Of a DNA stretch of 64,000 nucleotides, positions 4,701 to 60,596 are shown piece by piece (position 1 is the stretch's first letter; each line of letters begins with the position of its first letter). A model generated the notes under the pieces. It saw only the letters and a program-made list of their open reading frames with translations, did not search any database and was not told where the DNA came from. The DNA is from a virus (lineage: Duplodnaviria; Caudoviricetes): the IMG/VR virus record IMGVR_UViG_3300020577_012390, positions 1 through 64,000 of that record; one strand, given 5' to 3'. The position numbers and the translations under genes were made by a program.

Positions 4701-4943
4701 CTGGTCATGGACGGAAATAACGCGCCTGATATCCGTGCGAGGGTGGTCTCGACCGGGACCCAGGACGCCATCGCGTCTTTCGCGAACAACCGGATCGGAC
4801 GCATCAAAGCGGACGCGGTTGGTCCTGCTGCCCTGGCGGCGGAACCCTCGGTCCGGGGGGTGGCGACGGGTCGAGGCCCGGCCTGGACCATCTACAACGA
4901 CATAATTGAAGGCCAGAATCACGCGATGCTGGAGACCCCGTTA
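1731..4943 (+). CDS. Tail fibre/tailspike with predicted parallel beta-helix; ends at TTA
   Basis: TTG start after GGAGG; G/S/T/A-rich; repeated F-x-x-C-x-F beta-helix-like motifs; first in-frame TTA (4941-4943) overlaps the next ATG (standard-code end 5018). Confidence 0.7.
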
Positions 4944-5629
4944 TGGCCAAGGAGACTGTCAACCTCACGATCACGGATGGCACCAACCCCCTCAGCGGGG
5001 TCAAGGCGACGCTTTTGAGGGCGGGGGGTGGGGGTACCATGGGGGCGGGCACCTCGAACGGTTCTGGGGTCGTTTCCTTGGCGGCAATCGTGGACCCTGG
5101 GGTCTATTCGGTGATCCTGGACAAGACGGGTTACAGGTCACCCAGGCCGGAACCCTCGATCACGGTCCCCGATACCGGCGGGGTCACCCCTTACGCCCCG
5201 GCGTCCATCGCGATGGTTCCGCTAAGGATCACGGACCCCAGCGGGATCGCGTACTGCACCGTGTACGGGTTTTTCTCCGCCTCAAATCCATCAGAGGTCC
5301 GGCTCTTCGTCGAGATCGGGTCTCAGGGCGACGCGAACTGGTTGCAGCCCTCGAACCCCGGTTCGGCGGTCGACAAGCAGCCGGTCTTCCAGGTCGCGGA
5401 GGTTCGCCAGGTCCCGGTCGAAGCGTCCGGCAGGTTCTCCCTGGACGTCCCCGTGGGGGCGATGGTGAAGCTCTCTGTACCGGAATCTCGCCTCTACAAA
5501 TTCTTCCGGGTCCCCGCGCAAGATGCGGTGAACCTGAAGGACGTTCGGCTGTGGTTGGGGTCCTCCGATGGGATCAGCCTCAGCGAGAACGTGGGCACCA
5601 ACTTCTCTCAAGGAAGCGGCACAACATGA
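4943..5629 (+). CDS. Virion-associated protein with carboxypeptidase-regulatory-like beta domain
   Basis: GGAG RBS; motif DGTNPLSGVKATL...GTSNGSG...PGVYSVILDKTGY; ATGA overlap with next gene. Confidence 0.55.
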   Translation: MAKETVNLTITDGTNPLSGVKATLLRAGGGGTMGAGTSNGSGVVSLAAIVDPGVYSVILDKTGYRSPRPEPSITVPDTGGVTPYAPASIAMVPLRITDPSGIAYCTVYGFFSASNPSEVRLFVEIGSQGDANWLQPSNPGSAVDKQPVFQVAEVRQVPVEASGRFSLDVPVGAMVKLSVPESRLYKFFRVPAQDAVNLKDVRLWLGSSDGISLSENVGTNFSQGSGTT

Positions 5630-5862
5630 ACGAGACAACGTTCTCCAACGCCCTAAAAGCGTTCGCGGGTTCGCGCAAGGCCCTGGTCCTGTCGGTGGCG
5701 ATCATCGGCGTCGTTGCCCTCAACATCGCCGGGAAGATCGAGGTCCAGGCGGCGCTCGACTTCATCTGGAAGATCGTGGGGATCTGGATGGGAGCCGTGG
5801 CGGTCGAAGATGCGGCGGCGAAGACCTCCGCCAAGAAAGACGACCCCGGGGACGTGCAGTAA
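5626..5862 (+). CDS. Small membrane protein, holin-like
   Basis: 78 aa with two hydrophobic segments and charged C-terminus; end of tail module. Confidence 0.5.
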   Translation: MNETTFSNALKAFAGSRKALVLSVAIIGVVALNIAGKIEVQAALDFIWKIVGIWMGAVAVEDAAAKTSAKKDDPGDVQ

Positions 5863-5913
5863 ATAGAACGTCCTAAAAGCGATTGACGGGGGGTGGGGGA
5901 GGGGGTACCAGGG

Positions 5914-5943
5914 TTGACGGGGTAGGAAAACCAGTTATAGGTT
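5914..5943 (+). promoter_or_regulatory. Sigma70-like promoter for the replication module
   Basis: TTGACG-18-TAGGTT upstream of the helicase. Confidence 0.4.
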
Positions 5944-5973
5944 GTTCCACATGCCCCGGAAACCGGAAACCCC

Positions 5974-7356
5974 ATGAGGATTATCTACCGCACAAAATCA
6001 CCGATCATCGGGTCGCTGCTTGAGATCCCGAAAGACGCGGTGGACGTCGAGGCGCTGAAGGCGGACCTGACCATCTCGAACGGCGCCTACTTCCAGGCGA
6101 TGAGGGTTGGTTCGAGCGTCGCGGGCATGGCGGCGTCCATCGAGCTGTTCGAGGAGGGCGAAACCACGATCAAGGTCCCCCGCCACTACAACCCACCCTG
6201 GAACGGCGAGCCCCCATTCCTCGGGATCGCGTGGAGGTGCAGGTCTCCTTCTGTGGATCTGAAGAGTTCAATTACGCTCAGGAATCACACCCAGACGCTC
6301 GCGAGTAAGGCGCTCGTGAAGGACAAGAGCGACAAGATCCTGGCGCTGTCCTGCGGGAAGGGGAAGACCGTCGTGGGCCTTCACGCGGCGGCGATGGGGA
6401 ACCGGGCCCCCTTCCTGGTGGTGGTCAACACGACGGCCCTCCTCGATCAGTGGATGGAGCGCATTTCGGAGTTTTACGGGATTCCGAAAAACGAAATCGG
6501 CCACGTCCAGGCGGGGACCGAGCGGTGGAGGGGCTGCAAGGTGGTTGTGGGGATGCTGCACTCCATCTCGATGAAGCGGTACCCGCCCGAGTTCTACGAG
6601 TATTTCCGTCTCGTCATTTTCGACGAGGCCCACCGTCTCGGGGCCCAGGAATTCTCCGAGGCCATGAAGAAGTTCCCGTGCGAGCGATGGGGTCTCACGG
6701 CCACCCTGCGGCGTGCGGACGGGAACGACAAGGTCATCCAGATGCACCTCGGGGAGGTCTGCTATCAGGACCTCTCCCAGGACCTCAAGCCGAAAGTCTA
6801 CTTCCTGAATTGCGCTACCAGGGTGGACGAGGCGCGCTTCATCTGGCGCGGAAACCTGAACCTGGCCAACCTGACAACCTGGTTGTGCGAAAATGAGACC
6901 CGCAATAACCATATCCTCTCCTGGATCAACCGAGCCGCGAAACGCGGGCGTACGGTCCTTGTGTTGGGGGAGCGGTTGACCCAGGTTCACTCGCTCTACG
7001 AGGGGTGCGAGATCGATTCCAAGGCGATCCATATCGGCGCCCAATCCCAGGACGAACGGCGGGCGGCGCTGCGTCACCAGGTCGTCTTTGCGACCCAGCA
7101 CCTCGCGAAGGAGGGTCTGGACCGGCCCGAGTTCGACACCCTGATGATTCTCGTGCCGTTCACTTCCGAATCCAGGATGCAGCAAAGCGTCGGTCGGATT
7201 CAGCGCGAGGTCAGCGGGAAGCAGGCACCCACCGTGCTTGTTTTTGAAGACAACATTTCCATCATCTCCGCAATGGCGCGGAAGATGAAGCGTTATTTCG
7301 AGGCCCAGGGGTTCGAGGTCCGTAGCGGAAGCGCGGTCGCCCCCACGGAGGAGTGA
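5974..7356 (+). CDS. Superfamily 2 helicase
   Basis: Walker A SCGKGKT, DEAH box, TAT motif III, EGLD motif V, QSVGRIQR motif VI. Confidence 0.9.
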   Translation: MRIIYRTKSPIIGSLLEIPKDAVDVEALKADLTISNGAYFQAMRVGSSVAGMAASIELFEEGETTIKVPRHYNPPWNGEPPFLGIAWRCRSPSVDLKSSITLRNHTQTLASKALVKDKSDKILALSCGKGKTVVGLHAAAMGNRAPFLVVVNTTALLDQWMERISEFYGIPKNEIGHVQAGTERWRGCKVVVGMLHSISMKRYPPEFYEYFRLVIFDEAHRLGAQEFSEAMKKFPCERWGLTATLRRADGNDKVIQMHLGEVCYQDLSQDLKPKVYFLNCATRVDEARFIWRGNLNLANLTTWLCENETRNNHILSWINRAAKRGRTVLVLGERLTQVHSLYEGCEIDSKAIHIGAQSQDERRAALRHQVVFATQHLAKEGLDRPEFDTLMILVPFTSESRMQQSVGRIQREVSGKQAPTVLVFEDNISIISAMARKMKRYFEAQGFEVRSGSAVAPTEE

Positions 7357-7359
7357 GTC

Positions 7360-7809
7360 ATGCCAGTCGAGATCATGAAGAAGAACCGGGACGCTATCCC
7401 GGGGTACAACCCGAAGAGGCACGCCCACAAGGTCCCCCTGGTGAAGGTCTCCCGCAAGGGGACGACCTACCAGATCGATGGGGTGGTCATGGAGCTTTTC
7501 ACCATCTCAGTTTTCGCGGAGGCGCTGGACAGGACCGCGTCCACCATCCGTGAGCTACAGGGGGCGGGGAAACTCCTCCCCCCGCTGTTCCACGTCAAGA
7601 TGAAGAACGGGCGGGGGAACCTGCGGCTGTATTCCGCGTCCCAGATCGAGAACGCGAACCGCCTCCTGTTCCTGGGGAAGTTCAAGGGGGCGAAGTTCTC
7701 GCGCAACAGCGCGGACGGAGACTTTTTTGATGCGCTGAAAAGCGTGTTTTACGAGAAAGACGTGGTGGTGAACGATGAAGGCACCATCACCCGAGAGAGG
7801 AAAGAGTAA
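7360..7809 (+). CDS. Hypothetical protein, possible MerR-like winged HTH
   Basis: AEALDRTASTIRELQGAGKLLPP...RLYSASQI pattern. Confidence 0.5.
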   Translation: MPVEIMKKNRDAIPGYNPKRHAHKVPLVKVSRKGTTYQIDGVVMELFTISVFAEALDRTASTIRELQGAGKLLPPLFHVKMKNGRGNLRLYSASQIENANRLLFLGKFKGAKFSRNSADGDFFDALKSVFYEKDVVVNDEGTITRERKE

Positions 7810-7814
7810 CGAAA

Positions 7815-8321
7815 ATGGCCACCAAGAAAAACCCGAAGTCCCCCGCCCTGATGAGCGACCTGTGGGCGGTCGCGAACGAACTCTCCGCTGCCGTCGAGGC
7901 GAACCTGAACAAGTTCGCCGCCGACATGGTCGGCTGGCAACAGAAGCTCAACCAGACCTGGAACACAGCGAACGTGATTGTTCGCGCTCTGAATAACAAA
8001 GGCCTCCTGACCGAGGAGGACATCTCCCGGGCGGGGCGCGAGCTGATGGAGGAGGCGGGCGCCAACATGAAGGTCACGAAGGAGGCGATGGCGCGCAAAG
8101 AGCGGGTGAAGCGGGAAGACCTCCTGGCGAGCCCTGTCGAGGTCCTCACCGCCATCGTCGACAAGAGTTCGCGGGTTGATAAACCCCGTCTTTCTGTGGT
8201 ACCCTCTGGGGGTGGTGAGGACGGCGAGGTCAGCCCTGCTGCGGACACCATCCCCCCGGATGCGCCGCCCACCACGGAGGACAACAATGCCGAAGTTGAA
8301 GGCGGGGAAAACCCCTCCTGA
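7815..8321 (+). CDS. Hypothetical protein
   Basis: Operon-packed ORF with GC3-rich codons. Confidence 0.6.
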   Translation: MATKKNPKSPALMSDLWAVANELSAAVEANLNKFAADMVGWQQKLNQTWNTANVIVRALNNKGLLTEEDISRAGRELMEEAGANMKVTKEAMARKERVKREDLLASPVEVLTAIVDKSSRVDKPRLSVVPSGGGEDGEVSPAADTIPPDAPPTTEDNNAEVEGGENPS

Positions 8322-8670
8322 ACGCGGATCGCCTCGGGGTCACCCTGTAGCGGTCCTGATGGTCAAGGCAACGGTGACCGACGAGGTCACCAAACAGGTT
8401 CTCGTGGCCAGTGAAGACACCACGAGGATTCCCATTCCGATAGAGCCGGGAGACGTTATGGTTATTCGGTACGTGACTTCCATCAAGCTGAGCAAGAATT
8501 TCCAGTCCATCGGGCTGGAGATCGGGTTCGTCGAGTACCCCGTCAAGGCGGGCACCGACCCGGACGAAGCCTTCGAGGAGGTCTTCGCGAAGGTCGAGGA
8601 CATGCTGGTCCAGAAGACCAAAGACCTGGAGGAGACCCTGAACGCGCTGGGTGCGAAGAAGGGGAAGTTA
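8287..8670 (+). CDS. Hypothetical protein; ends at TTA
   Basis: ATG 8287; TTA 8668-8670 is followed by an AT/pyrimidine-rich intergenic-like tract. Confidence 0.6.
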
Positions 8671-8746
8671 GCCCTCCGATATCTGCTCTCTGTATCTGTA
8701 TTTTCTTTCTTCTCAGAAACACAGAAGCACGTACGCGAGGGAAAAC

Positions 8747-8935
8747 ATGCACTTCGTTGAAATCGAATACACGAAACCTGACCGCTCGAAGGTCATCACG
8801 ACCGTTTCCGTCGATGGCGATTCGGTCCCCAACCACCTTGCTATCTATCGTGCCATCCAGGCGGCGGGTCTCGACGCCATCACCTACAAGGTCCTCCGGT
8901 TCCTGGATTCGCGGTTCCAGCCGGTGAAGAAGTTA
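8747..8935 (+). CDS. Small hypothetical protein; ends at TTA
   Basis: GAGGG RBS; TTA 8933-8935 overlaps next ATG. Confidence 0.6.
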
Positions 8936-9435
8936 TGGCGCTGAAAATCAAGTTCAAGCGTCAGACCCCCATCCCGCACGAGTACATGGGCGGGTTCGCG
9001 GACCGGCCTTCGATGCGGACCTCCCGGGAGGCGCTGGAGTTCCTGCGGACCGAGAAGGTCCCCCGCGAGTCCTGGCCCGTCTCGGGGATCGTCGCCCTCT
9101 TCATCGAGGGGTACGAGGCGCGGTTCCGCCGCAAGGTGACCTCGATGGGCGGGAACTTCTTTGCCGAGGTCGTGGTGGCGGTCGCGCAGCTCGTTATCCG
9201 GGTCGGGGCGAAGGACGCTTCCGACGCGGTCGAGGCGGTTTTCAGCGACCAGCTCAAGTGGGTCACGTCGAGCCACCACAAGTTCCTTCTCAACGAAAAT
9301 AACTACGCCAAATTCATCATCCCTGCGATGTCGGCCATCGACGAGAAGCGCGGGGGTCGGGCGAGGGCGGCGGGCGAGCAGGCCGAGTTCACCCGGGACA
9401 ACAGCGGAGAGGGCTGCGAGGAGATCGATTTCTAA
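8935..9435 (+). CDS. Hypothetical protein (possible replication initiator partner)
   Basis: TAATG overlap with the DnaC-like gene. Confidence 0.55.
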   Translation: MALKIKFKRQTPIPHEYMGGFADRPSMRTSREALEFLRTEKVPRESWPVSGIVALFIEGYEARFRRKVTSMGGNFFAEVVVAVAQLVIRVGAKDASDAVEAVFSDQLKWVTSSHHKFLLNENNYAKFIIPAMSAIDEKRGGRARAAGEQAEFTRDNSGEGCEEIDF

Positions 9436-10043
9436 TGGCTAAAAACGTAATTCGGGTTCCACCGCGTTTCCAGGGCGCCACCCTGGATTCTATCGACGAC
9501 GACCTCTTCCCCACGGTCGCGCCATGGATCGCGAAGGTCGAGAAGGAGGGGTGCGCCATAAAGAAGATGAAGGGGTTCATCTTCAGCGGGCCACCGGGGG
9601 TCGGGAAGACCTGGACCATGGCGGCACTCACCTCCTGGTGGGCGCCCAAGGGGGACTACGAATTCGTCACCGCCCCAGACCTGTTCGAGCGTTACTCGAT
9701 TTTCGGGGACGCCGAAAACGGTGAGGGTAAGTCTGTGGACACGTACCGCGGGAAACCCTATAATCAGACGGTCGAAACGGTACCCTGGCTCGTGATAAAC
9801 GACCTGGGGAAAGAATACCGGGGCGGCAAGATGGCGGAACTCAATACCCATAAGCTCGGGAGGATTCTCCGGGCGAGGAGTGAGCGGGTTCTGCCGGTTT
9901 TCATCACCACCAACCTCCCGCTCAAGGGGGAGAAAGAAGACGAGACTCTCTGGGGAATTTACGGCGGCTCAATTACGAGCCTCCTTCGTGAGATGACCAA
10001 GGCGTATCAAGTGATCGGGCCCGACCGGAGGAGGTCGGAATAA
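9435..10043 (+). CDS. DnaC/IstB-like ATPase (helicase loader)
   Basis: PPRFQGATLD N-terminus, Walker A GPPGVGKT, Walker B-like LVINDLGKE, R-x-E-R-x-LP-x-FITTNL. Confidence 0.8.
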   Translation: MAKNVIRVPPRFQGATLDSIDDDLFPTVAPWIAKVEKEGCAIKKMKGFIFSGPPGVGKTWTMAALTSWWAPKGDYEFVTAPDLFERYSIFGDAENGEGKSVDTYRGKPYNQTVETVPWLVINDLGKEYRGGKMAELNTHKLGRILRARSERVLPVFITTNLPLKGEKEDETLWGIYGGSITSLLREMTKAYQVIGPDRRRSE

Positions 10044-10080
10044 GCCCCCACTGTACGCGATTTCAGACCAGGAAAAACAC

Positions 10081-11187
10081 ATGCCTCTTTCAGCGCGTAA
10101 TCATGCGGTCCCCGCACCCGGGACCCCCGTTGGTATCGTTCGGGCGACCCCCGAGCAACGTGTGATGGGGACCCGGACTCTTCCCATGCGCCAGGTGGCG
10201 TACGGGGAATTCATGGACAAGCTCAACACCGCGAGGCGCGGTAACCACGACTACGAGGTCAAGGGCCGCGATCTGCGGGTCAACGAGAACGGCACCATCA
10301 CGATCCCCGGCGGGGGGATCTTTTCGTGGAACGATTTTAGCTTCTCCCAATTGGCGGCGAAGCTGAAGATCCCCGCGGACTTCCTGCGGAAGAGCCCGGT
10401 CGGGGATGGTCCCGCGGGCAAGAAGGCGATCATCGACTACTGGAAGGAGGGCCACGACGACAAAGCGTTTTTCGTCCGCACGAAACACGTTGACCAGCGG
10501 GACCCCGAGACCGGCGCCATCGGGTTCGTCCGGGCGTTCCTGGGGAACCGCTACGGCGTCTTCGACAACACCGAGCTGGCCGACATGATGGGTCACTTCG
10601 TCCAGCGTGACCGCCTGGTGATCCAGGCGGGTCAGATCACGGACAAGGCGCTCCACTTCCGTCTCCTGTACCCGGACGGGGTGGACGTGGGCGGGGACCC
10701 GGAGGGCAAGCCGGACGTCCACCAGGTCGGCCTCCATATCCGGAATTCGGAGGTTGGATTCTGCAACTTCCAGGTCGACTTCATGCTGTTCCGTCAGATT
10801 TGTACGAACGGGATGGTCGCCATGCTCGACAAGGAACACCTCGTCGACCAGAAGCACAACGGGATCGAACACCACCAGATGAGGATGCTGGCCCAGGCGT
10901 CCCTGGACACGGTGCAGGAGCGGTACAACGAGGTCCTGGCGCGGGTGGAGCGCACCCGGTTGGTCGAGTACGACCACCCCATGCGCGAGCTGCATCGGGT
11001 TTTGAAGGTCAACAAAATCGCTACGGAGGAGGTCACCCACGCCTGCGAGAAGGCGTGGGAGGCGGAACCCCACGCGAACAAGTTTGGCATCATCCAGGCG
11101 ATCACCCGGGCGGCCCAACTCTTCCCCGTCCACCAGCGGGTGAAGATGGAGGAGGTCGCCGGTAACCTCCTGATGTCCGGTGCGTTA
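10081..11187 (+). CDS. DUF932-like protein; ends at TTA
   Basis: Motif GLHIRNSEVG...LFRQICTNGMV; TTA 11185-11187 then about 110 bp spacer. Confidence 0.65.
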
Positions 11188-11296
11188 GCCGCTGGGATCT
11201 CGTTTATCGAGGTCCCTATTCTGCCTTCTTGCGAACCCACGGGGGTTGTTCGCCGCAAGGGGGTAGAATAGGGATTCCGATTTTCAGGAGCCGAAC

Positions 11297-12544
11297 ATGG
11301 ATATCGAGCGCGCGTTCATCACGAAACTCTGCCAGACCGGGGACATGCCTTCGGTCCAGAAAGATCGATTTACGGGCGAGGTTTTCATCGAGCCGGTCTA
11401 CACCGAGATTTATGGGTGGATCGATAAGCAGTACATCGCGACGGGTCAGGTTCCCTCGGTCGAGCTTTTGCGGGAGGAGTTCGAGGAGTTCGAGCCCGAA
11501 GAGTGCGACGACGAGATCCCCATTCTCGTAAATCGCCTCAACGAAAAACGGTTGTACGCGGAACTCGCGCTGGTTTCCAAAGATATCCGGATCAAGAGCA
11601 GGACGGACCCGAAGGATGCGTTGTCGTACGCCCAGAGCGCGATAACGAAACTCACCGTTACATATGACGCTCAGGGCGACGAGATCGACATCTCGAAGAG
11701 CGGGAGCCAGATCACCGAGCGGTACGAGCGGAACAAGAACTCGAAGGGCCTCCTCGGGTACCCCTTCCCCTGGGCCAGGTTCACCGCGATGACCCGCGGG
11801 GCGCGCGGGGGCCACCACCTCGGGTTCTACGGCGATTCGGGGTCGATGAAGACCTGGCTGCTGATCTACCTGGCGATATGGTTTATCAAGCAGCAGATTC
11901 CGGTAGTCCTGTTCACCAAGGAAACGCCGGTCGAGGATATCCAGAACCGCGCGGCGTCCATCCTGGCCGAGGTGGATTACGAGAGGTTCCAGGACGGTGC
12001 GCTGAACGAGGAAGAGGAGACCCGCTTCTATGACGCGATGGATTCTCTGGAACTCGAAAATGCACCCCTCCATATCATCGAGGTGATGGGGATGGGGGCG
12101 CACGCCCTAGCAGAAATCAAGAGCAAGATTTTCCTCTACGGGGCGAAGATCGCCATGATCGACAACCTGTATTACTACGCGGAGAATTTGGAGTGGCAGA
12201 ACTTCGGTATCCTCTGCAACGGTATCCGTCAGATGGCGAGGAAGGAGAAAATGCCGATCTTCTCTACGAACCAGACGAACAACGACAAGAAAGCGGGCGC
12301 CGGCTTCTCTGACGTCGGGTACGGGAAGGTCTACGCGCAAAGCTGTACGGAACTCATCCGGATCGTGCGCGAACCCATGCAGGTCGACCGGGAAGAACTC
12401 ATCCTCTGGACCAAGAAGCTCTCGGAGGGGAAACCCGGGCGGATCGCGATCAACGCCAAGCCTGGATACGACTTCTCCGAGAAGGCCATGATCGAGGACG
12501 GGGACCCTGCGGCGAGCGGAATTGACGACGCTGATATCACGTTA
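11297..12544 (+). CDS. dnaB: DnaB-like replicative helicase; ends at TTA
   Basis: P-loop GDSGSMKT, KETP..DIQNR, MIDNLY, STNQTN motifs; TTA 12542-12544 followed by GGAGG RBS and primase ATG (standard code would run 161 codons into primase). Confidence 0.85.
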
Positions 12545-12554
12545 GGAGGACACC

Positions 12555-13652
12555 ATGAGCACAGCGGACAAGATCAAGGGGTGGATGAGCGACGCGGGCT
12601 GCAAGGGGATTCGGGCGTCCAACGGAAATTGGGTCTCCACCTGCCCCTTCCACCGGGCGAAGGACGGGCTCCAGTTCGCGATGACGATGGATACCGGGCT
12701 CTATGTCTGTTACTCCGCGAAATGCGGCGCCCAGGGGAACCTGCTGACCTTCCTGATGGAAGGCGTGGACATGGAGCCGAAGCGGGCGATGGCGGAGGTG
12801 TCCAGCCTCGACCTCCAGGGGGCGATGTTCCTGGACGACGACAGCGATATTCTGCTGCCGAAATACGAAGACCGGCGCAAGAAAGACGGACCCGTCACCG
12901 ACCCCGTCCACGCGGCGCCGAACCCGCGGTACGTCCACCTCTGCGGGCGGTGGTGCCCCGACTTCCTCCTGAAACGGGGGTTCAAGAAAGAGGCGCTGCG
13001 CAGGTGGAGGATCGGGTTCGACCGTGAGGAGCAGCGGGTAACCATACCCGTTTATGACAGGGCCGATAAACTGATCGGTCTTTCGACCCGTGGGACCAGG
13101 AAGGACGACCCCCGGCCGAAGTACCTCCACCTCGACTTCCCCCGCTCGTCATACCTCTTCGGGGAGAACAGGATGATGAAGGGCCTCAACCGGGGGATCA
13201 TCGTCGAAGGGCAGCTCGACGCGGTCGCTATCTCACAGTTTTTCCAGAGCTACGAAAACCCTGAAGGTCGTCCCGAGGACCTCACCTACTTCGTGCCCCT
13301 CTCTACGATGGGGTCCCGGGTGAGCGCCCGCCAGATCGACAAGATGGCGGAGCTGGATATCGTTGTTCTGTGTTTCGATAATCCGGCCATCGACGAGGAC
13401 GGTCATCGGACCACCCTGTACGTAGGCGACCAGCTCCTCGCGAGGATGGGTCCTAGTCGGGTTTTCGTGGCTTCATTTCCGTCTGTCCTCCGCGAAGACG
13501 GGTCCGCGAAGCGCCTGAAAGACCCCGCAGAATTCCTGGAACACCCGGACTCCGACCGCCTGTTCCGGTACCTGCTCAACTCTCGGAATTTCGTCTATTA
13601 CGACGAGTGGAGCATTGAAAATGAAGTTTGCGTTTCCCGTGGGGGTCGATTA
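12555..13652 (+). CDS. dnaG: DNA primase (Zn-finger plus TOPRIM); ends at TTA
   Basis: CPFH...CYSAKC zinc finger, IIVEGQLDA and VLCFDN TOPRIM motifs; TTA 13650-13652 then AT-rich spacer. Confidence 0.85.
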
Positions 13653-13720
13653 GACTTTTATCTGGGTTTTGAACCCACCGAAAAAACGGCTTTACAGCCC
13701 TCTACGAAAGAACAAAACAC

Positions 13721-14680
13721 ATGGCGGGTATGCGCGGTTTGGCTGCTGTGCGGGCGTTGGCGGAAGCCAACAAGGGTGGGAAGTTCGTCAACGACTTCCG
13801 GCTCCAGGACAAGGAATCCGCAACCATCTGGTTCAACGGGACCAACGATGAGCCGCTCATCACGTATGAGCACACCTTCAAAAACGGTAACGACTTCAAG
13901 ACCATCACCTGCTCCTACCCGAAACCCTGCGTCGGGTGCTACTACCACGACCACGGGGACAAGCGGGTGGGCGCCAGGACGGCGAAGGCGGCGTTCAACG
14001 TGGCGGACACTCGCTACTTCCACACCGAGAAGGGGATGGGCCGGAACGGGAAGGAGCGCGACCTCTGGACCGAGTGCCCCGGCGAGGCGACCTGTAAGAA
14101 GTGCCGCAAGGGCGCGGAGCGGAAGATGGGCGGCCAGAAGCGGTGGGTGATGTCCCTCATGTGGGCGCAAGCCCTCGATGGGGCGTCGAAGACCGCGGGG
14201 ACCCGGTGCCGGGCGTGTAAGATCGGGAAAATTCGGGTGCTGAAATACGTCAACGACACTGGCAAAGAGGTGTTGGTGGACGACCCCAATAACCTGCCCG
14301 AGGGCGTGATCGAGAAACTGGCGTGCTCGAACAAGGCGTGTCAGGAGCCGACCCGGGCGACCCTCTTCGACGTGCCCTGGGACGTCACCCGGTCGGGGTC
14401 CCAGAAGAGCACGAGCTACCAGTTCGTCCCCGGGTCCTTCTCCTTCGAGGACCAGCCTGACGACGTCCTGGACCTCGAACCCCTCGACCTCGACGAGGCG
14501 TGCAAGCCCTACGGGACGGGCGCCCAGGCGAAGCGTCTGGGCATGAACGACCCCTTCGAGGGGATGGCGGAGGCTGGTGGTAGGAAGAATCTCAAGGACG
14601 CCAATATCACTGGCGATGACGACGAGGAGGACGAGGAGGAAGAAGAAGAGAGCGGAGCTACCCCCTTCGACGACGAGTTA
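13721..14680 (+). CDS. Single-stranded DNA-binding protein (gp32-like, Cys-rich); ends at TTA
   Basis: Between primase and polymerase; acidic tail ending ESGATPFDDE immediately before TTA 14678-14680. Confidence 0.6.
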
Positions 14681-17100: not shown

Positions 17101-17738
17101 AAAGCTGGAAAGCGACAGAGAACATCCCGTTCATCGACGGGCTGGGCGGCGAGATCGTTCGAGGAGAGGTCTTCGCCTGCGACGACCACGACTTCAACAG
17201 CTACGACAAGGAACACACGGTCTCGGTTGGGAAGGCGCCCAACCAGAGGTTTCGGAAAATCGGCGTCTACCATTTCCTTACCCGAGCCCTTCCCTCCGAC
17301 GATTCGGCCATCGAAGCGGTTGCGGAAGAGGAAAGGATGCCCAACCGACAGGTCATGATGGCTTGGGTCCTCATGATGGAGAAGTTTTTCGGCTCCGTGA
17401 AATCCATCCATAACAACGGGAGGTCGCTCAACGTCCTCTGCGATTACAGCGCCCGGGACTGGAACGCTCTCCGGTCCCTCAACAAGAGTCTGGGGGTCGA
17501 ACTCGCCAGCATCGAGTCGACGATCCCCGAAGTGAGGCAGCTTGGCGAAGGCGAGAAGGACGAAGGTAAAAATAGGGGGCTAGAAAATCCGAACGGAGAC
17601 CCGGACGATTGCTCCTTCTGCGGCGGTGTGGTCCAGTGGTGGGAGCGGCAGCGAAAGAACAGGTGGGTTGTGAAGTGCCTGTCCTGTGAACAGATGGAAC
17701 TCAGGGAACCGAAAAACCATGGCAGCGAAAAAGACTGA
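17097..17738 (+). CDS. Hypothetical protein with C-terminal CxxC...CxxC zinc ribbon
   Basis: CSFC...CLSC; ATGA-coupled start. Confidence 0.55.
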   Translation: MKSWKATENIPFIDGLGGEIVRGEVFACDDHDFNSYDKEHTVSVGKAPNQRFRKIGVYHFLTRALPSDDSAIEAVAEEERMPNRQVMMAWVLMMEKFFGSVKSIHNNGRSLNVLCDYSARDWNALRSLNKSLGVELASIESTIPEVRQLGEGEKDEGKNRGLENPNGDPDDCSFCGGVVQWWERQRKNRWVVKCLSCEQMELREPKNHGSEKD

Positions 17739-24553: not shown

Positions 24554-24558
24554 AAAGC

Positions 24559-32433: not shown

Positions 32434-32494
32434 AGTCATGACGGGTTACTAGCTAGAGTTGAAGTGCGGGTCATGTCGTGATATGAAGTAAAAC

Positions 32495-44583: not shown

Positions 44584-44781
44584 TACCCGTGCAAGACCTA
44601 CGACATCCACTTCGAGCCGGTGTACGCGGGGCCCAAGGCGAGCGAGGAGGACAAGGCTTACTGGGAGGCGACCCCGGCGGGGGAGTTCCGGCTGGGGCAG
44701 GTCAAGGAGTCGGTGGCTGCTCTCTACGAGACGGGGGCGTGCTACTACATCGAGACGTCCCCCGTCCCGGCGTCAGCCTTA
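44584..44781 (+). pseudogene. N-terminally truncated fragment of a small phage hypothetical protein
   Basis: Coding-like frame YPCKTYDIHFEPVYAGPKASEEDKAYWEATPAGEF...GACYYIETSP with in-frame TGA immediately upstream and no usable start; ends at TTA 44779-44781. Confidence 0.4.
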
Positions 44782-47373: not shown

Positions 47374-47799
47374 TAAGCGGCCGCTCTTCTTCGCGCGGTC
47401 CCTCTCGGTCTTCCCCGGGTGCCTCGGAGGACCACCTCGACCCCCACCCTGAGCCAGGCTTGCGCGGCGTTCGTCCATCGCGGCGCGGGTCTCCAGCCAT
47501 TCGGCCTGATCAGCGCGACCTGCGGCGACGACCCACTCCTTCGCCTCGGTCAACATCTCGATGGCCATGTCGAGGGTTTCGGAGTTCATCTCCGCGGGGA
47601 TGTTGCCCTGGAACTTCACCTCGATGAAGCTGGAAATATCTCCGGTGACTTTCTTGTAACCCATCCGGAAGCTGTACTTCCGGCGAGAGGGGAGTTCGAG
47701 ACGCTGGACCGTCACCACCAGCTCGCCCCTCTCTACCCGATGGACCTCCTCCCAGTTCAGCCGGGGTTTACCATCAGGGGTCATGTTATTTGTCGACAT
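47374..47799 (-). CDS. Hypothetical protein; ends at TTA (fused to GH25 under the standard code)
   Basis: TTA 47376-47374, then a 36 nt spacer and the lysin ATG in the same frame. Confidence 0.6.
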
Positions 47800-48092: not shown

Positions 48093-48413
48093 ATGGAAAA
48101 GCCTAAATACAACATCGAGGGCCTACTCCCCCTTCATCCCCCGCACGGGGACCCAAACACGAAGAAGGTCTGGTGGTACATGCACCGGGAAAACCCCTCG
48201 GTCGAAGGGTTGATCCTCGCCTCCACGGCGTATTGGGCGAAGTGCGGGGCGTCGAGGCTGTCTTCTGGCGTTTATGAACCTGGTCAATTCGAGGTTCAGG
48301 AAGCCAAGGAGGACGTCATCTCTCGTCTGTATGCTCGGTCCCGGGTCGTTGACGAAACCCCGGCGATGGTGGATAATAAGACTCCGAAAAACGGAAAGAA
48401 GGGCAGGAAGTTA
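48093..48413 (+). CDS. Hypothetical protein; ends at TTA
   Basis: TTA 48411-48413 overlaps next ATG. Confidence 0.55.
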
Positions 48414-48784
48414 TGGCACGTTTCACGGTATGGGTTTTGTTCGCGCCAAATGCGGAGATGTTCCCGAAGCTGCGGGTGTTCGTCCCCCCGGACTACGACA
48501 TGCGGGCCCCGGCGGTCTCTGATGCGTTCCCCCGGGTGAAGCCCGGGACGGACGCGGACGTCATGGGGAGGGTCTGCGCGAACATTGCTCGGGAGTTCTT
48601 CAAGGGCGAGTGCGAGGTCCGGCTGGCCGTCTTCCACGAACCCCCGGAGGACCCTGGAGAGCTGGCCCAGATCCCCGAGGCGGATCGGATGGGCTGGTGG
48701 TGGGACATGGAGGCGGATCGGCGGGCGGTTTTGCCGCCCTGGATCAACGATGACCTGACCGGGGCCGTCATCCCGGTACGTTTA
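48413..48784 (+). CDS. Hypothetical protein; ends at TTA
   Basis: TTA 48782-48784, then a GTTACGGAGA leader. Confidence 0.55.
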
Positions 48785-49403: not shown

Positions 49404-49760
49404 ATGTCAGATTTCACGGTGGAAGAGGTTGCGGCTGAGATCGAGGCGCTGTGCTTCGAGATGTCGGATTTTCTGAAAGAGAAAAACGCTGGATACGGGA
49501 ACTCGGTCTTCGATCCCGTGGCCGTTTTCTCGACCGCGACGGCGGTGGACCGCATCAAGGTCCGGATCGACGACAAGCTGAGCCGGATCAAGCGGGGGAA
49601 GGGCCCAGACGACCTCTCCAGCGAGGACACGAAGAAGGACCTCGCCGGCTACCTGATCCTCTGGTCGGTCTTCGACCGTCTGGAGGCTCGCAAGGCGGCG
49701 ATGGAAGACGAGGAGGTCCGGAAGGCCGAGTCGGTGGTCGCTGCGAAGAAGAAGCGTTTA
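49404..49760 (+). CDS. DUF1599/nucleotide-modification-associated domain protein; ends at TTA
   Basis: EKNAGYGNS...VRIDDKLSRI...EDT..DLAGYLIL; TTA 49758-49760 followed by GGGGAG RBS. Confidence 0.7.
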
Positions 49761-50699: not shown

Positions 50700-50927
50700 A
50701 TGGCAGCGGCAGCGGGGCGCGGTGCGCCCGATCTCGAAACCTCGAAGAACGTGATGGCCCGGATGCGCGAGATGGCCAACCGCGGCGAGTCCTTCGCCCG
50801 TGGTCAGCGCGGCTTCGCCCGTCAGATGGCTCGTGGCGCGGCCCGCGGTCTCCGCGGCGCGGGCGACAAGGCGAACGCCGCCCTCGTGCGCGACCTCGCC
50901 GCCGCGACCGGCGCGGGCGGCTCCTTA
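50700..50927 (+). CDS. Small Arg/Ala/Gly-rich basic protein; ends at TTA
   Basis: AGGAGA RBS; TTA 50925-50927 lies in the stem of a C(UUCG)G hairpin (CTTACCC-TTCG-GGTAGG). Confidence 0.55.
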
Positions 50928-51106: not shown

Positions 51107-51916
51107 ATGGCGACGGTCTTTTTCTCGGGCGGCATCGACTCCACCACGCTCGCTTTTGACGTGGCGAAAAACCCCTGGAGGTACGGCATCTCTCCGAAGA
51201 CGGAGGATTTCCGCCTCCTGACCGCGTACATGGGGAAGGAGAAGCCGGCCCACCTCGGCAGGCTGGCGACGAAGATCCGCGAAGAGGCCGAGTGGACGGA
51301 GTTCGCCGGGTTCTCCCACGAGTTCGTGGACGCCACGAGTCTATTCGATTTTCAAAAGTCGGATATCCCGCATGGGGGCGCGGGGACGATGACTCCCCTG
51401 TCGACGAAGTACCAGCCGGATCTCCAGTCGATCTCCTACGCGCCGGGCCTCCACACCCTGCTGGCCACCGTGGCGTACAACCGCGAATGGTTCGGTAGGA
51501 GTCTGTCCGCCTTCAGCGACCCCCAGGCGTTTTTCGGGTTCCAATACGACGGCCCGATCTGGAACGAGGTGGACAAGGGGACCGTGACGCCGAACGACGT
51601 CTCCCCCGATTATATCGCGGCCCTGAATACCCTGGTGAGGGTGTCCGGACCCCGTCCGGGGGTGCGGTTCCGTGCGCCGTTCCTGGAGAACCGGATGGAT
51701 CGGGTTCATATCCTGGAATTGGCCATCACAATTGGCGTTCCGCTCACCTGGACGAGTTCCTGTGAGCAGGGGTGGATGGTGAACTGCGGGTACTGCGGAC
51801 AGTGCCTCCGGAGGATGAAGGCGAGTTCGTACCTGGAAGACGCCATGAAGACGTTCTTGAAGAAGCTGGAAGACAAGAAAGCGGCGGAGAAAGCCGCGAA
51901 GAAGGGTAAGAAGTTA
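51107..51916 (+). CDS. Divergent QueC-family PP-loop ATPase; ends at TTA
   Basis: FSGGIDSTTLA PP-loop; SSC-x6-CGYCGQC zinc motif; TTA 51914-51916 overlaps the queC ATG. Confidence 0.7.
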
Positions 51917-52584
51917 TGAAGCCGAAATACACTGTGGTCCTCTCCGGGGGACAGGACTCGACCACCTGCCTGTATTGGGCGCTCGACAAGGGCGTCGATG
52001 TTCAGGCCGTGACTTTCCACTACGACCAGCGCCACGACACCGAGGTCGAGGCGGCGAAGCGGATCGCTGCTCACGCGGGGGTCCCCCACACCGTCCTGGA
52101 GGTCCCCGGCCTCGGGGTTGCGGGGAAGGGGTCGTCCCTCACGCGGGACTTGCCGCTGGACCTCGATGGGGGGTTCCAGGGGCTCCCGTCGTCCTTCCTC
52201 CCTGGCCGGAACCTGGTCTTCCTGTCCCTGGCGGCGGCGTTCGCCATCCCCCGGAACTCCTTCTACCTCGTCACCGGGGTCTGCCAGACGGACTACTCGG
52301 GGTATCCGGACTGCCGGCGGTCGACCATCGACGCGATGGAGAAGGCCATCAACCTCGGTAACGATCTTCACGGCTTCAAAATCGATACCCCCTTGATGCA
52401 CCTGACGAAGGCGGAGACGGTCCGCCTCATGAGGGGGTTCGGGAACCAGGCGTGGGAGGCGCTAGGGATGTCGATCACCTGTTACGAGGGGAAGCACCCG
52501 GGGTGCGGCGCGTGCGCGGCGTGCGTGCTGCGAAAAAAAGGTTTTTCGGAAGCTGGACTTGGTGACCCTGCGGAGGACAACTGA
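51916..52584 (+). CDS. queC: 7-cyano-7-deazaguanine synthase
   Basis: LSGGQDSTTCL, YDQRH, PGRNL, YSGYPDCR, TPLM..TKAE, CYEG...CGACAAC. Confidence 0.95.
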   Translation: MKPKYTVVLSGGQDSTTCLYWALDKGVDVQAVTFHYDQRHDTEVEAAKRIAAHAGVPHTVLEVPGLGVAGKGSSLTRDLPLDLDGGFQGLPSSFLPGRNLVFLSLAAAFAIPRNSFYLVTGVCQTDYSGYPDCRRSTIDAMEKAINLGNDLHGFKIDTPLMHLTKAETVRLMRGFGNQAWEALGMSITCYEGKHPGCGACAACVLRKKGFSEAGLGDPAEDN

Positions 52585-52586
52585 TT

Positions 52587-53168
52587 ATGAAAAGCTACGA
52601 ATCTCTTACGTTCAAGGGTGAGAAGGAAGTCAACGGCCCGGAGGGGTCTTTCGTCATCGTCGAGGGCGAGGACGGCAAGAAGTACAAGATGGTGAGGGAG
52701 GCGCTTCAGTCTCTCGTCGAGGAGACTCAGCCCACGAAACCCCACGGGGCGCGCGGGCTCGACACCTTTCCGGCTCCCTCGAACATGCAGGTGATCGATT
52801 TTCACCTCCCCGAATTCACCTGTCTCTGCCCCAAGACCGGGCAGCCTGACTTCGCGAGTTTCAAGCTCCGCTACATCCCCGACGAGAAGGCGGTCGAGTC
52901 GAAGTCGCTGAAGCTGTACCTCTGGTCGTTCCGCGACAAGGGCTGCTTCCACGAGAAGGTGACGGAGACGATCTACCAGGACCTCCTGACCGCGCTCGCC
53001 CCTCGATGGTTGCAGCTCATCGGGGAGTTCAACGTCCGGGGCGGCATCTACGAGAAGGTGGCGCGGGAGTGGCTGTCCACCGAGCTTCTTTTCGCGGGGT
53101 CGAATGGGCACTCGACCAATTCGCGGACACTCGAACGCCTCGTCGCGAGCTACCGTATCCAGTTTTTA
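52587..53168 (+). CDS. queF: PreQ0 reductase (unimodular QueF); ends at TTA
   Basis: EFTCLCPKTGQPDFA, QueF signature ESKSLKLY, FHE, FNVRGGI; TTA 53166-53168 followed by GGGGAG RBS and the terminase ATG. Confidence 0.9.
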
Positions 53169-55082: not shown

Positions 55083-55532
55083 ATGCGCGACACCGTGACC
55101 CTGAAGCAGTTCCACACCCCCTTCAACAGCGCGTCGATCCGGAAGCTGCTTGGTCAGCTCTTCCGCGCGTCGTCCGAGCAGGAGACGGCCGCCTCCGGTT
55201 CCCTGGCGATCATGGCGGGTGGCATCGCGCGTCACAAGGGGACGGTCCAGGACATCTGGCTCGTTTCCGGCGCGGCGTGCGCGGCCGGCGAGTCGATGAC
55301 TTTTGACGTCCTGAAAAACGGCACGTCGATCCTCATCGGGGTCTACACCCTGGACTCGACGAAGCCCAACAAGGAGCCGATCTCCCTTCTGTCCCTCCTC
55401 GACCCGACGAAGGCCGACATCACCTGGGGCGACAAGCTGGAGGTCACCCGCGTCTATACCGCGGGCGGCGGCCCCACCCCCCTGGTGAACACCCGTCTCG
55501 ACGTCGAGTGGGCGCCGAACCAGGACAGTTTA
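55083..55532 (+). CDS. Putative virion protein; ends at TTA
   Basis: GGAGA RBS; beta-rich; TTA 55530-55532. Confidence 0.55.
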
Positions 55533-55567: not shown

Positions 55568-55792
55568 ATGGCAGATCCAGCGAACCCCGGAACCCAGCCC
55601 CAAGGGAACACCCTCTGGGGTCTGATCCGGGTTGGCGGTAACAGCAGCCAATTCTCGTTCCCCCGGGAGCAGATGTCCCTCGCGGACTCCTTCGCCCAGG
55701 GTGTCGGGAAGGCCCACAACGGGGTCCAGTACGCGCATTTCGACATGCGAAATTACGCGCGGACCGCCGGAACCCCCAGCGGGAGGAAGTTA
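55568..55792 (+). CDS. Small hypothetical protein; ends at TTA
   Basis: AGGAG RBS; TTA 55790-55792 lies 2 nt before the next GTG. Confidence 0.55.
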
Positions 55793-57357: not shown

Positions 57358-57875
57358 TCGTCTTCTATCCGAAACCGATCCCCGGCCGCCCTGGACCTCG
57401 GGGAGATTCGGTGGTGGTCCCTGGAGGCCCGCCCGGTACCCCCGGAACCAACCTGGTCCCCTTCCGCCTGGTCTACCCGGCGAGCGCCATCGTCGTCGTG
57501 GACGGGCTCTCGGGGTTCACCCGGGTCGGGGCGATCCCCTTCGACCCTTCGGTGCTCTATCAAGGAGCAACCGTTGTTCGGCGTCTGAAATTCCAAACGG
57601 CAGCCGAGGTGACGTTTGGGGTGACGGCGGAGATCACGCTCTACGATCCTGCGGCGGGGGCATACATCGCGGGAAGCACCGTCACGGTGACCTCGACTAC
57701 CCCGGTCGTGCAAGAGACGTCGGAACTTGTCCCTGGCGGAGCCTCTACGTCGGTCAAACTCTCCGCAAAAATCTACGAAGTCCACGCGCGAATTACGGTT
57801 CCGGGGAGCCCTGTCCCTGGGGATCTCGTGCGGGTCTTTAGCCACAACATCATCGCGGATTTCACCGCTTCATTA
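57354..57875 (+). CDS. Putative virion protein with GPRG/GPPG repeats; ends at TTA
   Basis: TTA 57873-57875 followed by GAAGGA RBS. Confidence 0.55.
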
Positions 57876-59073: not shown

Positions 59074-59083
59074 GAGGTTTATC

Positions 59084-59359
59084 ATGGCCCTAAAAGACGT
59101 AAACCAGATCCCTATCGGGGCCTTCCCTCAACCGGCCCTTTCGGTCGTTCGTCTTCGGGCGGTCCCCGTGGCGACCTCTCCTGCGCAGCCCTCAATCCCA
59201 ACCCCGGCCACCTACAAGATGAGGGGTCGTGATGTTGATTGTGGAACGCTGACTTACCGTTACTGGACCGCTACCGGGTCCCCCGACTATACGGGCGCTC
59301 AGTACGCGGGCGCGAAGTGCGGCGCGAGCCCCCTCGCGGACATAATTCGGATCACTTTA
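59084..59359 (+). CDS. Small hypothetical protein; ends at TTA
   Basis: GAGG RBS; TTA 59357-59359 then an A-rich spacer. Confidence 0.5.
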
Positions 59360-59388
59360 GAAACGCTCAAAAACGAAAGAGAACCACG

Positions 59389-60108
59389 ATGGCGAACCTG
59401 TTCCACACCAGCATGAGCGCGAAGGCGGCGACCTTCTTCTCCACGCTCTTCCAGATGATCGGAGTTTCGACCGCCGATATGTCCAGGTCCAAGGGGGTGG
59501 GGGTCACCCTGAAGTGCCTGGACGGCGACGCGATCACCGCAGAGATTCAGCCCCTCGACCAGGGGAACATGATCCGCAAGCTCGTCGAGTCCGGGTCCCT
59601 GGTGGTCCCCTCGGGCGGGGCTGCCGATCTCGATGGCGACGTCGGGACCGCAACCCTGGTGGCCTCGACGGTGGACGTCACGGTCCCCGGGGGAGTCCCC
59701 GTGGGGTCGCTGGTCTACGCGATTGCGACCACCCCGGCGGGGGTCCAGAAGCCCCTCGCGGCGGTCCGTAAATCGGCCACCGAAATCACGATCTCCTCCG
59801 CGGGGTCCGGGTTCGGTGCCCTGCTGGACAGCGCGGGGGTGAGCGGGGCCCTGACGGCGGGGGTGAACGCGGCGATTGCCCTGGAGAACGTTGCTGGGGA
59901 CCTCCTCGCGGTGAAGGAGACCGCGGCGGCGGGTTCGGCTGCCGACCACTTCTCGGTCGTCCGGGTCGACAACAGCAACGTGAAAGTTCAGGCGCACAAC
60001 TCCGCGGGCGCCCTCGTCGCGGGGAACACCTCGACGGTCAAGGTTTACAACCTCGGCCAGGCCGGTCACGATACCTCCCTGGTCCGTTGGGCGGTCGTCC
60101 GCCCCTTA
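59389..60108 (+). CDS. Putative virion decoration protein; ends at TTA
   Basis: C-terminal VRVDNSNV...NTSTVKVYNL shared with next gene; TTA 60106-60108. Confidence 0.55.
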
Positions 60109-60134
60109 TTCGGTTTTTAGAAAGGCCAAAAACG

Positions 60135-60596
60135 ATGATCCACAAGTTCAACTCCTCCTTCTTCGCCACCCGCGTCCAGCGGACCCTCGCCCTCATCGCG
60201 GGGCTCTTCAACCTCGACCTGAACCTGAAGAACGCCCGCAACGTCAAGATCACCATCGAGACGCGCGACGGCCAGGGGATGTACTGCCAGGTCGACTCCG
60301 ACGATGGGTGCGCGCGGTCCACCCCCGACTTCGCGCCGGCTGTCCCCGTCACCTGGACCCCGGGGGCGCTCACGGCGGGCGTGAAGAGCGACTTCTCCGT
60401 CAGCAACGCCGCGGGGGACCGTCTGGTGGCCCGCCTCGTCACCCCCGGAGGCAACCCGGCGGACTACTACGTGGCGACCCGCGTGGACAACAGCAACGTG
60501 GCGGTGACCGCCTACAAGCGGACCTCCCCCGGCGCGGCTGCTGTCGTCGAGACCGGGGACACCTCGACGGTCGAGGTCGCGAACCTCAAGCAGTTA
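60135..60596 (+). CDS. Putative virion decoration protein, paralogue; ends at TTA
   Basis: TRVDNSNV...DTSTVEVANL; TTA 60594-60596. Confidence 0.55.

Follow-up and report, generated by a model that had tools for sequence, protein, structure and literature searches.

A tailed phage genome in which TTA appears to serve as a fourth stop codon

The window analysed here, 64,000 nucleotides (nt) long, is the first 64 kb of the IMG/VR virus record IMGVR_UViG_3300020577_012390 (Duplodnaviria; Caudoviricetes), a linear record of 85,395 bp with a CheckV completeness of 92%. Its subject is the codon TTA, normally a leucine codon, which in this phage is found at the ends of genes. Counts given below without mention of the window refer to the whole record, in which the content of guanine plus cytosine (GC) is 61% and that at third codon positions (GC3) is ~0.83 in genes. 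Genes were called with a codon log-odds model self-trained on long open reading frames (ORFs), in which TTA was scored as neutral and was permitted as a terminator; this resulted in 115 genes and a coding density of 91%. Nearly all genes lie on the plus strand, the exception being a minus-strand cassette at 44.8-47.8 kb that includes a GH25 lysozyme gene. Recognised among the predicted genes are those for an SF2 helicase, a DUF932 protein, a DnaB-like helicase, a primase, PolA, RecA and a SpoVS homologue, as well as QueD, QueE, FolE, a QueC-like protein, QueC, QueF, the TerL terminase and an SGNH/GDSL esterase. For 44 of the 115 genes, including a block at 34.5-39 kb to which no function is assigned, the sampled relatives have no counterpart.

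The 115 genes end in TGA (55 genes), TTA (42), TAA (12) and TAG (6), and not one in-frame TTA lies inside a gene among 25,818 codons. Other rare codons do occur inside genes (CTA, 36; ATA, 50; TCA, 66; TTG, >200), and in the gaps between called genes no ORF was found that would need an internal TTA. A preliminary description of this DNA had placed 33 in-frame TTA triplets at protein ends in the window and had seen none inside long conserved genes; the TTA-neutral caller reproduced all 33 at their positions, and the absence of internal TTA extends to the rest of the record, where exceptions were looked for. The counts likewise bear out its statements that TAA, TGA and TAG still terminate genes and that TTG, CTA, TCA and ATA are internal sense codons. 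The 33 sites in the window are listed below; lengths are in amino acids (aa), read-through denotes the extension under the standard code, L003 is a second strain, G001 is a related genome, and further comparison contigs and proteins bear L and P numbers, respectively.

TTA 4941-4943, plus strand: ends a 1070-aa gene (1731-4943) in a TTATG overlap with gene 4943-5629; the read-through of 24 codons lies within the next gene.
TTA 8668-8670, plus strand: ends a 103-aa gene (8359-8670); the orthologue in G001 has the same 4-aa tail and stops in TGA, and L003 has TAG one codon upstream.
TTA 8933-8935, plus strand: ends a 62-aa gene (8747-8935) in a TTATG overlap with gene 8935-9435; kept in L003; a canonical stop follows 2 codons on, so that the site is indecisive alone.
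TTA 11185-11187, plus strand: ends the DUF932 gene (10186-11187); orthologues in L001, L005 and G001 end 0-1 aa away in TGA or TAG; kept in L003.
TTA 12542-12544, plus strand: ends the DnaB-like helicase gene (11297-12544); its last residue (...GIDDADIT) is also that of P0002 of L004 (58% identity), which stops in TGA; GGAGG and the ATG of primase are next.
TTA 13650-13652, plus strand: ends the primase gene (12555-13652); alignment to the G001 orthologue reaches the TTA, with 0 aa left here and 3 aa there.
TTA 14678-14680, plus strand: ends a 319-aa gene (13721-14680), where the coding signal stops; the extension is 9 codons, and orthologue tails of 34 versus 17 aa give weak support.
TTA 25369-25371, plus strand: ends a 273-aa gene (24550-25371); QueD (Pfam PTPS) begins in frame at 25375, and its Pfam match starts only after the TTA.
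TTA 27433-27435, plus strand: ends the FolE (GTP cyclohydrolase I) gene (26962-27435); position 177 of the 179 in the Pfam profile is reached at residue 153 of 157; a canonical stop follows 3 codons on.
TTA 32054-32056, plus strand: ends an HNH-like gene (31703-32056) in a TTATG context; a second complete HNH paralogue is next.
TTA 35227-35229, plus strand: end of gene 34924-35229; in TTATGA it overlaps the ATG of a kinase-like gene and TGA is the next codon; ambiguous alone.
TTA 35918-35920, plus strand: ends an 84-aa gene (35666-35920) in a TTATG overlap with gene 35920-36267; read-through of 46 codons.
TTA 36629-36631, plus strand: ends a 116-aa gene (36281-36631), where the coding signal stops; read-through of 18 codons.
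TTA 40461-40463, plus strand: ends a 363-aa gene (39372-40463); read-through of 30 codons, and a 1.18-kb ORF-free stretch follows.
TTA 42252-42254, plus strand: ends a 100-aa gene (41952-42254); read-through of 12 codons; the next gene is 70 nt on.
TTA 43735-43737, plus strand: ends a 470-aa gene (42325-43737); read-through of 35 codons.
TTA 44779-44781, plus strand: end of a 53-aa ORF (44620-44781) weakly supported as a gene; one codon separates the TTA from TAA; ambiguous.
TTA 44785-44787, minus strand: end of a 184-aa gene (44785-45339); TAA follows after one codon; ambiguous alone.
TTA 45357-45359, minus strand: end of a 215-aa gene (45357-46004); GGAG is next and a canonical stop lies 2 codons on; ambiguous alone.
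TTA 46004-46006, minus strand: ends a 210-aa gene (46004-46636) in a TTATG overlap with the next minus-strand start; read-through of 19 codons.
TTA 47374-47376, minus strand: ends a 141-aa gene (47374-47799); the 240-codon read-through enters the GH25 lysozyme gene (46651-47337) in frame.
TTA 48411-48413, plus strand: ends a 106-aa gene (48093-48413) in a TTATG context; read-through of 41 codons.
TTA 48782-48784, plus strand: ends a 115-aa gene (48437-48784); read-through of 18 codons; the next start is 31 nt on.
TTA 49758-49760, plus strand: ends a 113-aa gene (49419-49760); GGGGAG and an ATG at 49778 follow; read-through of 35 codons.
TTA 50925-50927, plus strand: end of a 75-aa gene (50700-50927); canonical stop 3 codons on; ambiguous alone.
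TTA 51914-51916, plus strand: end of the QueC-like gene (51107-51916); in TTATGA it overlaps the queC ATG and TGA is the next codon; ambiguous alone.
TTA 53166-53168, plus strand: ends the QueF gene (52587-53168); next come GGGGAG and, still in frame, the start of TerL, which in the closest relatives occupies its own frame of 572-581 codons.
TTA 55530-55532, plus strand: ends a 149-aa gene (55083-55532); orthologues in L006, L007, L008, L009 and L011 have TGA, TAG or TAA at a distance of 0-6 aa.
TTA 55790-55792, plus strand: ends a 74-aa gene (55568-55792); the orthologue in L008 stops in TAG, both proteins having a 1-aa tail.
TTA 57873-57875, plus strand: end of a 154-aa gene (57411-57875); a canonical stop lies 2 codons on, and GAAGGA and an ATG are next; ambiguous alone.
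TTA 59357-59359, plus strand: ends a 63-aa gene (59168-59359); read-through of 18 codons; the next start is 29 nt on.
TTA 60106-60108, plus strand: ends a 239-aa gene (59389-60108); the L006 orthologue aligns to both ends (0 aa left) and stops in TGA.
TTA 60594-60596, plus strand: ends a 153-aa gene (60135-60596); orthologues in L006 and L007 end 0-1 aa away in TGA; the 98-codon read-through covers the next gene.

The architecture of the genome is altered markedly by the choice of code. Re-calling of the genes with TTA as a stop, which the preliminary description had put forward as a check, leaves 360 nt of overlap between neighbours (3 overlaps >30 nt), whereas code 11 applied from the same starts gives 6,241 nt (20 overlaps >30 nt). 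Genes are intact at the same 91% density with TAA, TAG and TGA as stops, indicating that this is not a stop-to-sense code such as codes 4 and 15. TTATG stop-start overlaps number eight in the window and about five in the rest of the record, and such a junction would be the analogue of TAATG or TGATG. In the read-through, GC3 is 0.60 (1,285 codons that do not enter an in-frame neighbour) versus 0.83 in genes. A cruder window test gave a coding signal upstream only at 55 TTA triplets and on both sides at 12; for control codons the both-sides class was far more prominent.

Comparison with orthologues points to the same ends. DnaB-like homologues are 418-432 aa long, the closest being P0002 (58% identity), and no primase orthologue extends beyond the TTA; the read-through, put at 161 and 166 aa for DnaB and primase in the preliminary description, measures 160 and 165 codons after the TTA. 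Tails agree within 0-5 aa with those of canonically stopped orthologues for DnaB, DUF932, primase, FolE and the genes starting at 8359, 55083, 55568, 59389 and 60135, and beyond the window for the genes starting at 65327, 67907, 71325, 78411, 79960 and 81778. Homologues that run past the TTA were thus not seen; DnaB, DUF932, primase, FolE and at least 10 other proteins end with their orthologues.

Searches with TerL yielded ten related viral contigs, among them G001 (contig of L007), a complete 81,362-bp genome with terminal repeats and the standard code. When compared with G001, 15 of 22 TTA-ended genes have tails that match within 5 aa, and the spread is the same as for canonically stopped genes. 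G001 uses TGA (77), TAG (29) and TAA (7) as stops and has 4-7 internal TTA codons in 24.5k codons. Its orthologues of TTA-ended genes stop in TGA (18), TAG (4) and TAA (2), and TAG ends 6 of 115 genes here versus 29 of 113 in G001; it seems that TTA took the place mostly of TGA (18 orthologous sites) and of TAG (4). In the complement of G001 17265-17340, ARAGORN reports a transfer RNA (tRNA)-like gene of undetermined type with a four-base anticodon (ctcg).

Across the wider clade, TTA is a sense codon throughout the genes of distant relatives (L005, L010, L011, L013, L014, L026 and L027), including DnaB, PolA and TerL, and the closest sampled stretches (L006-L008; GC 62-67%) have zero in-frame TTA. 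TTA is thus very rare or absent as a leucine codon in the GC-rich part of the clade and appears as a terminator in this lineage, a pattern expected of codon capture. L015 and L009 each have one or two possible TTA ends, which are ambiguous and were left uncounted. In L009, genes 10450-10947 (plus strand) and 83-541 (minus strand) end in GGG TTA TGA with an ATGA overlap, the junction seen here at 35227 and 51914; TTA there is either tolerated as the last sense codon or an early TTA stop. The TerL relatives are at most 60% identical, no DNA match was found among GenBank phages and no viral-contig relative was found via DnaB; the only near-identical sequence is L003.

L003 is an 8.2-kb contig from a separate sequencing run and assembly that aligns to window positions 6433-14626 with 96.8% identity. 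Of five TTA stops covered, four are kept (8933, 11185, 12542 and 13650), and in place of the fifth there is TAG one codon upstream of 8668. Differences from the window within genes fall at codon position 3 in 183 of 253 cases, and in the DnaB body in 38 of 39. After the DnaB TTA, 8 of 10 differences lie at position 3 as counted in the primase frame (position 1 in that of DnaB), and the differences move to the frame of the next gene in the same way after the primase TTA. A one-off error or a planted change is thereby ruled out, and the substitutions show that the upstream frame is no longer under purifying selection beyond the TTA.

The main proposal of the preliminary description, that TTA is a fourth stop, is thus upheld by the absence of internal TTA, by the orthologue ends and by the independently assembled strain. 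The pattern lies well beyond chance: selection in the upstream frame stops at each in-frame TTA, and the next gene begins shortly after it or overlaps it. It is very likely that TTA ends translation in this phage, beside UGA, UAA and UAG, and that UUA is not read as leucine.

The reading of UUA itself is probably supplied by the host rather than by the phage. Genes for replication (among them DnaB and primase), modification, lysis and virion structure all include some that end in TTA, as do the left-end genes; because TTA stops lie in all modules, UUA would have to be read from the first minute of infection and a factor made by the phage would come too late, which points to the translation apparatus of the host. 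In the phage, ARAGORN found no tRNA or transfer-messenger RNA (tmRNA) gene, a six-frame search found no RF-1 domain, no Rfam family was matched, and among ~70 proteins searched in Pfam or PHROGs none matched a translation-related family. GGQ tripeptides were considered as a sign of a release factor and judged to be chance occurrences. An alternative is that a standard-code host is reprogrammed on infection by an unrecognised phage protein, which would be packaged in the virion or expressed very early and would either terminate translation at UUA or eliminate the host tRNA-Leu(UAA). The 44 genes without counterparts, including those at 34.5-39 kb, could accommodate such a protein; TTAA-avoiding relatives (see below) that read TTA as leucine could mean that the host group is the same; and the kinase-like gene overlapping the TTA at 35227 hints at RNA repair or processing. 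Its product (35229-35663), encoded within the same 34.5-39-kb block, is an AAA_33/polynucleotide-kinase-like protein that also matches the kinase part of phage RNA-ligase families and may have an RNA repair function. Against phage-imposed reading stand the left-end genes, DnaB and primase, all of which must be translated while no phage factor is yet available; the lack of RF-1/GGQ domains, tRNAs and translation-related families in the searches above; and the same TTA ends in unrelated phages that have only one protein in common with this one, making the alternative unlikely.

That protein is the SGNH esterase (60901-62307; 469 aa), which is missing from the phage's own clade. Its homologues, 49-60% identical, are found in unrelated myovirus-like contigs of GC 70% with baseplate-J and Mu-like genes, where they are surrounded by baseplate genes, and the esterase is probably an exchanged tail or receptor-modifying module. 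In ~32,000 called codons, the SGNH-sharing contigs contain 5 in-frame TTA codons, and all 5 are at apparent gene ends:

L038, 3979: TTA of an SGNH-sharing contig, in a TTATG overlap with the next gene.
L042, 11360: TTA at the exact end of SGNH homology; protein P0014 has a 41-aa tail that is missing in 10 homologues.
L042, 6634, L045, 2443 and L047, 4121: TTA coinciding with loss of the coding signal or with a called overlap that vanishes.

A common, probably tail-borne esterase plausibly means a common host, in which case the code would belong to that host. Baseplate-J homologues of these phages led only to a metagenome contig, L048, with zero in-frame TTA, and a scan of viral contigs with the SGNH alignment gave nothing new. 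The cultured phages Bacillus BCD7 and Streptomyces BRock, with TerL ~30% identical, have no SGNH counterpart.

Mechanistically, the host would lack tRNA-Leu(UAA), leaving UUG to tRNA-Leu(CAA), and a class-I release factor of RF2 type would have its reading of the second codon position (A or G) extended to U. A release factor of this kind was also the suggestion of the preliminary description; it accords with the RF2 Ser204 substitutions of organelles and is the mechanism proposed for UUA as a stop in labyrinthulean mitochondria and peDinoflagellate plastids (PMC12574857). Historically, TTA would have become a very rare or absent leucine codon in the GC-rich clade and re-emerged as a terminator through codon capture. 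We lean towards an altered, host-supplied RF2-type factor as the agent of termination at UUA.

Alternatively, UUA might be unassigned, so that ribosomes stall and are then rescued (ArfA/RF2 or ArfB) or drop off, without true stop recognition. Unassigned codons occur in bacteria with high GC or small genomes, TTA is absent or nearly so in the nearest relatives, and close canonical stops are enriched after TTA. However, a third of the genes, including those for very large and presumably abundant structural proteins, would then need slow rescue; products released by tmRNA would carry a degradation tag; at least 10 TTATG overlaps imply efficient termination coupled to re-initiation; and organellar cases with the same pattern have release-factor changes. 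Stalling followed by rescue is thus an improbable account of these gene ends.

A further alternative is a leaky or dual TTA, a fraction of which is read as leucine to yield extensions or fusions (QueF-TerL, the 24550 gene with QueD and the 47374 gene with lysozyme). Three TTA-ended genes are followed by the next gene in frame with no canonical stop between, and a canonical stop lies within 3 codons downstream at 12 of 42 TTA sites (10 of 33 in the window; for example, TTA TGA at 35227 and 51914, TTA NNN TAA at 44779 and 44787) versus 6 of 73 canonical stops (Fisher p = 0.0066). However, 3 in-frame neighbours among 42 sites are no more than expected by chance, the extensions have neither coding signal (GC3 as above) nor purifying selection in the upstream frame, and mutations that create new TTA stops shortly before older ones would account for backup stops equally well. 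Partial decoding as leucine thus has little probability.

The possibility that a true A or G (TAA or TGA) is seen as T through 7-deazaguanine modification, base-calling or assembly error, RNA editing or deliberate alteration is very improbable. The phage does carry FolE, QueD, QueE, QueC and QueF. QueD lies at 25375-25746, QueE (radical SAM) at 25973-26683 and FolE at 26962-27435; a divergent QueC-like gene (51107-51916), QueC (51916-52584) and QueF (52587-53168) form a second group, and the set as a whole predicts 7-deazaguanine (preQ0/preQ1-type) modification of DNA. Standard-code G001 likewise has counterparts of QueD, FolE and the QueC-like gene, and the unrelated TTA-stop contig L047 has QueD and FolE. 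As G001 has the same modification genes and canonical stops only, with no TTA ends, a modified-base artefact was rejected. Moreover, only in-frame TTA is affected: codons aligned in relatives with out-of-frame TTA (T|TAY) are Tyr in 63% and Phe in 18% (control Tyr codons, 55% and 13%), and no Asp/Asn signal was found at the aligned T|TAY codons. Out-of-frame TTA therefore encodes conserved Tyr, so that a frame-blind miscall, base modification or editing is not the cause. TGA is still the commonest stop in every fourth-base context, and L003 has the same TTAs, one TTA-TAG exchange and a substitution pattern typical of real evolution.

A separate feature of the sequence is the absence of TTAA, the only missing 4-mer (count 0 versus ~47 expected); because of it, no TTA stop is followed by A. 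TTAA is avoided across the clade (L005-L008, L011, L015, L026, L027 and G001), including relatives that read TTA as leucine, and avoidance was therefore rejected as the cause of the TTA pattern and regarded as a separate DNA-level feature, probably restriction avoidance or another DNA-level constraint.

That TTA is an ordinary leucine codon and the long extensions and overlaps are real can be dismissed: standard-code ORFs do stay open for 160-615 codons at some sites, and a 554-aa read-through DnaB from L003 (P0001) is present in a public protein collection, but the extensions are missing from all homologues, have no coding signal and evolve in the frame of another gene, and complete absence from 25,818 internal positions would not be expected of a leucine codon.

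Several points weigh against a fourth stop codon read by the host. At 12 of 42 sites a nearby canonical stop (within 3 codons) makes the TTA uninformative when taken singly, and the excess of such stops could mean that termination at UUA is leaky and backed up. Scans of genome contigs with the GH25 lysozyme and SpoVS for a host gave no match, and protein-atlas assignment gave only 'Bacteria/Uroviricota'. The plausibly common host of the SGNH-carrying phages is deduced from one protein and 5 TTA codons, and base identity at the sites is based on two assemblies, not reads. If TTAA avoidance signifies a common host group, a code determined purely by the host would be harder to hold. On balance, the explanation as a whole, with UUA as a fourth stop read by the host through an RF2-type factor, is favoured with reasonable confidence. 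The evidence tilts slightly towards a free-living bacterial lineage with a four-stop code (an altered RF2-type factor and no tRNA-Leu(UAA)) that several unrelated phage lineages have adopted, including the present 85-kb PolA/DnaB phage and the myovirus-like phages of GC 70% with which it has the SGNH esterase in common.

Some other features of the genome are recorded here. Tandem HNH-endonuclease paralogues (31703-32056 and 32074-32433), each without internal TTA, are followed by an AT-richer 222-codon ORF (32492-33160; GC ~0.51) that is TTA-free and was skipped by the gene caller. The 1.18-kb stretch 40464-41640, where GC is lower (0.53), has no credible ORF on either strand and no Rfam match; it might represent a regulatory region, an origin or an RNA not described before. 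Upstream of 11 of 115 genes (e.g., those starting at 49778, 59389, 60135 and 60615), the motif AAAAAC separates Shine-Dalgarno-like purines from the start codon; the plus strand has 69 copies of the motif and the minus strand 29, and AGGCCAAAAACGATG is present twice.

If true, a four-stop code of this kind in a bacterial lineage would be the first sense-to-stop reassignment outside organelles. To our knowledge, accepted code variants of bacteria and phages are all stop-to-sense changes or amino-acid swaps, and sense-to-stop changes are documented only in mitochondria and plastids. In the literature searched, UUA as a stop was found only in organelles, and neither UUA nor any other sense codon was found as a stop in bacteria or phages. 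Its occurrence in phages, and by implication in their hosts, would mean that codon capture by release factors is possible in large, free-living genomes, and it predicts a specificity change, namely an RF2 variant that accepts U at the second position. Such a code would limit host range and horizontal transfer in both directions: genes from TTA-using donors would be truncated in the host and the phages would be crippled in standard-code hosts, a barrier to gene flow. In practice, standard callers mis-annotate these genes, as in the DnaB read-through P0001 and in QueF-TerL, which is an 809-aa ORF under code 11, and tools that detect codes by amino-acid inference are not designed for sense-to-stop changes.

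Among known systems, UUA is a stop in labyrinthulean (Thraustochytrium) mitochondria (NCBI table 23), where mtRF2a has a Ser204 substitution and tRNA(UAA) is absent; UUA and UCA are stops in peDinoflagellate plastids (pRF2 Ser204), and UUA and UUG (UUR) in mitochondria of Marsupiomonadales and Pseudoscourfieldia (mtRF1a), an altered RF2 or RF1 being proposed as the reader in these organelles (PMC12574857). As in labyrinthulean mitochondria, UUA here is never internal and sits at the stops of homologues, the standard stops are retained and UUG is still leucine. Unlike those organelles, which have their own release factor, the phage shows no translation genes, and the machinery would be that of the bacterial host. 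Resemblance to the plastids and green-algal mitochondria lies in the large share of genes that end in the new stop (over a third to half) and in apparent fusions that vanish once the codon is read as a stop. A cognate tRNA is missing in those organelles; the phage has no tRNA gene, and the relevant tRNA set would be that of the host. The differences are that only UUA is affected here, with TCA (66) and TTG (>200) as internal sense codons, that there is no RNA editing and that this is not an organelle.

Recoding of TAG to Gln and of TGA to Trp is known in crAss-like, Lak and other phages (bioRxiv 10.1101/2021.08.26.457843; PMC7886860). As in those phages, genes are mis-called under code 11 and the code is unlike that of close relatives. 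Their change, however, is from stop to sense, with suppressor tRNAs, often release factors and a concentration in late genes, whereas here it is from sense to stop, with neither and in all modules, and TAG and TGA are never internal. In high-GC actinomycetes, rare UUA is regulated through bldA tRNA-Leu(UAA), and UUA-linked recoding candidates are described in Streptomyces phages (PMC10732093). There too, GC pressure nearly eliminates UUA and its reading hangs on a single dispensable tRNA, but UUA is leucine and lies inside genes, where it is never found in this phage. Bacterial codons can also be unassigned, as are AGA and AUA in Micrococcus luteus and CGG in Mycoplasma capricolum. With these the present case shares the loss of a codon, and presumably of its tRNA, under compositional pressure, the first step of codon capture, at or near which the nearest relatives stand; unlike unassigned codons, which are simply avoided, TTA has returned here at 42 gene ends.

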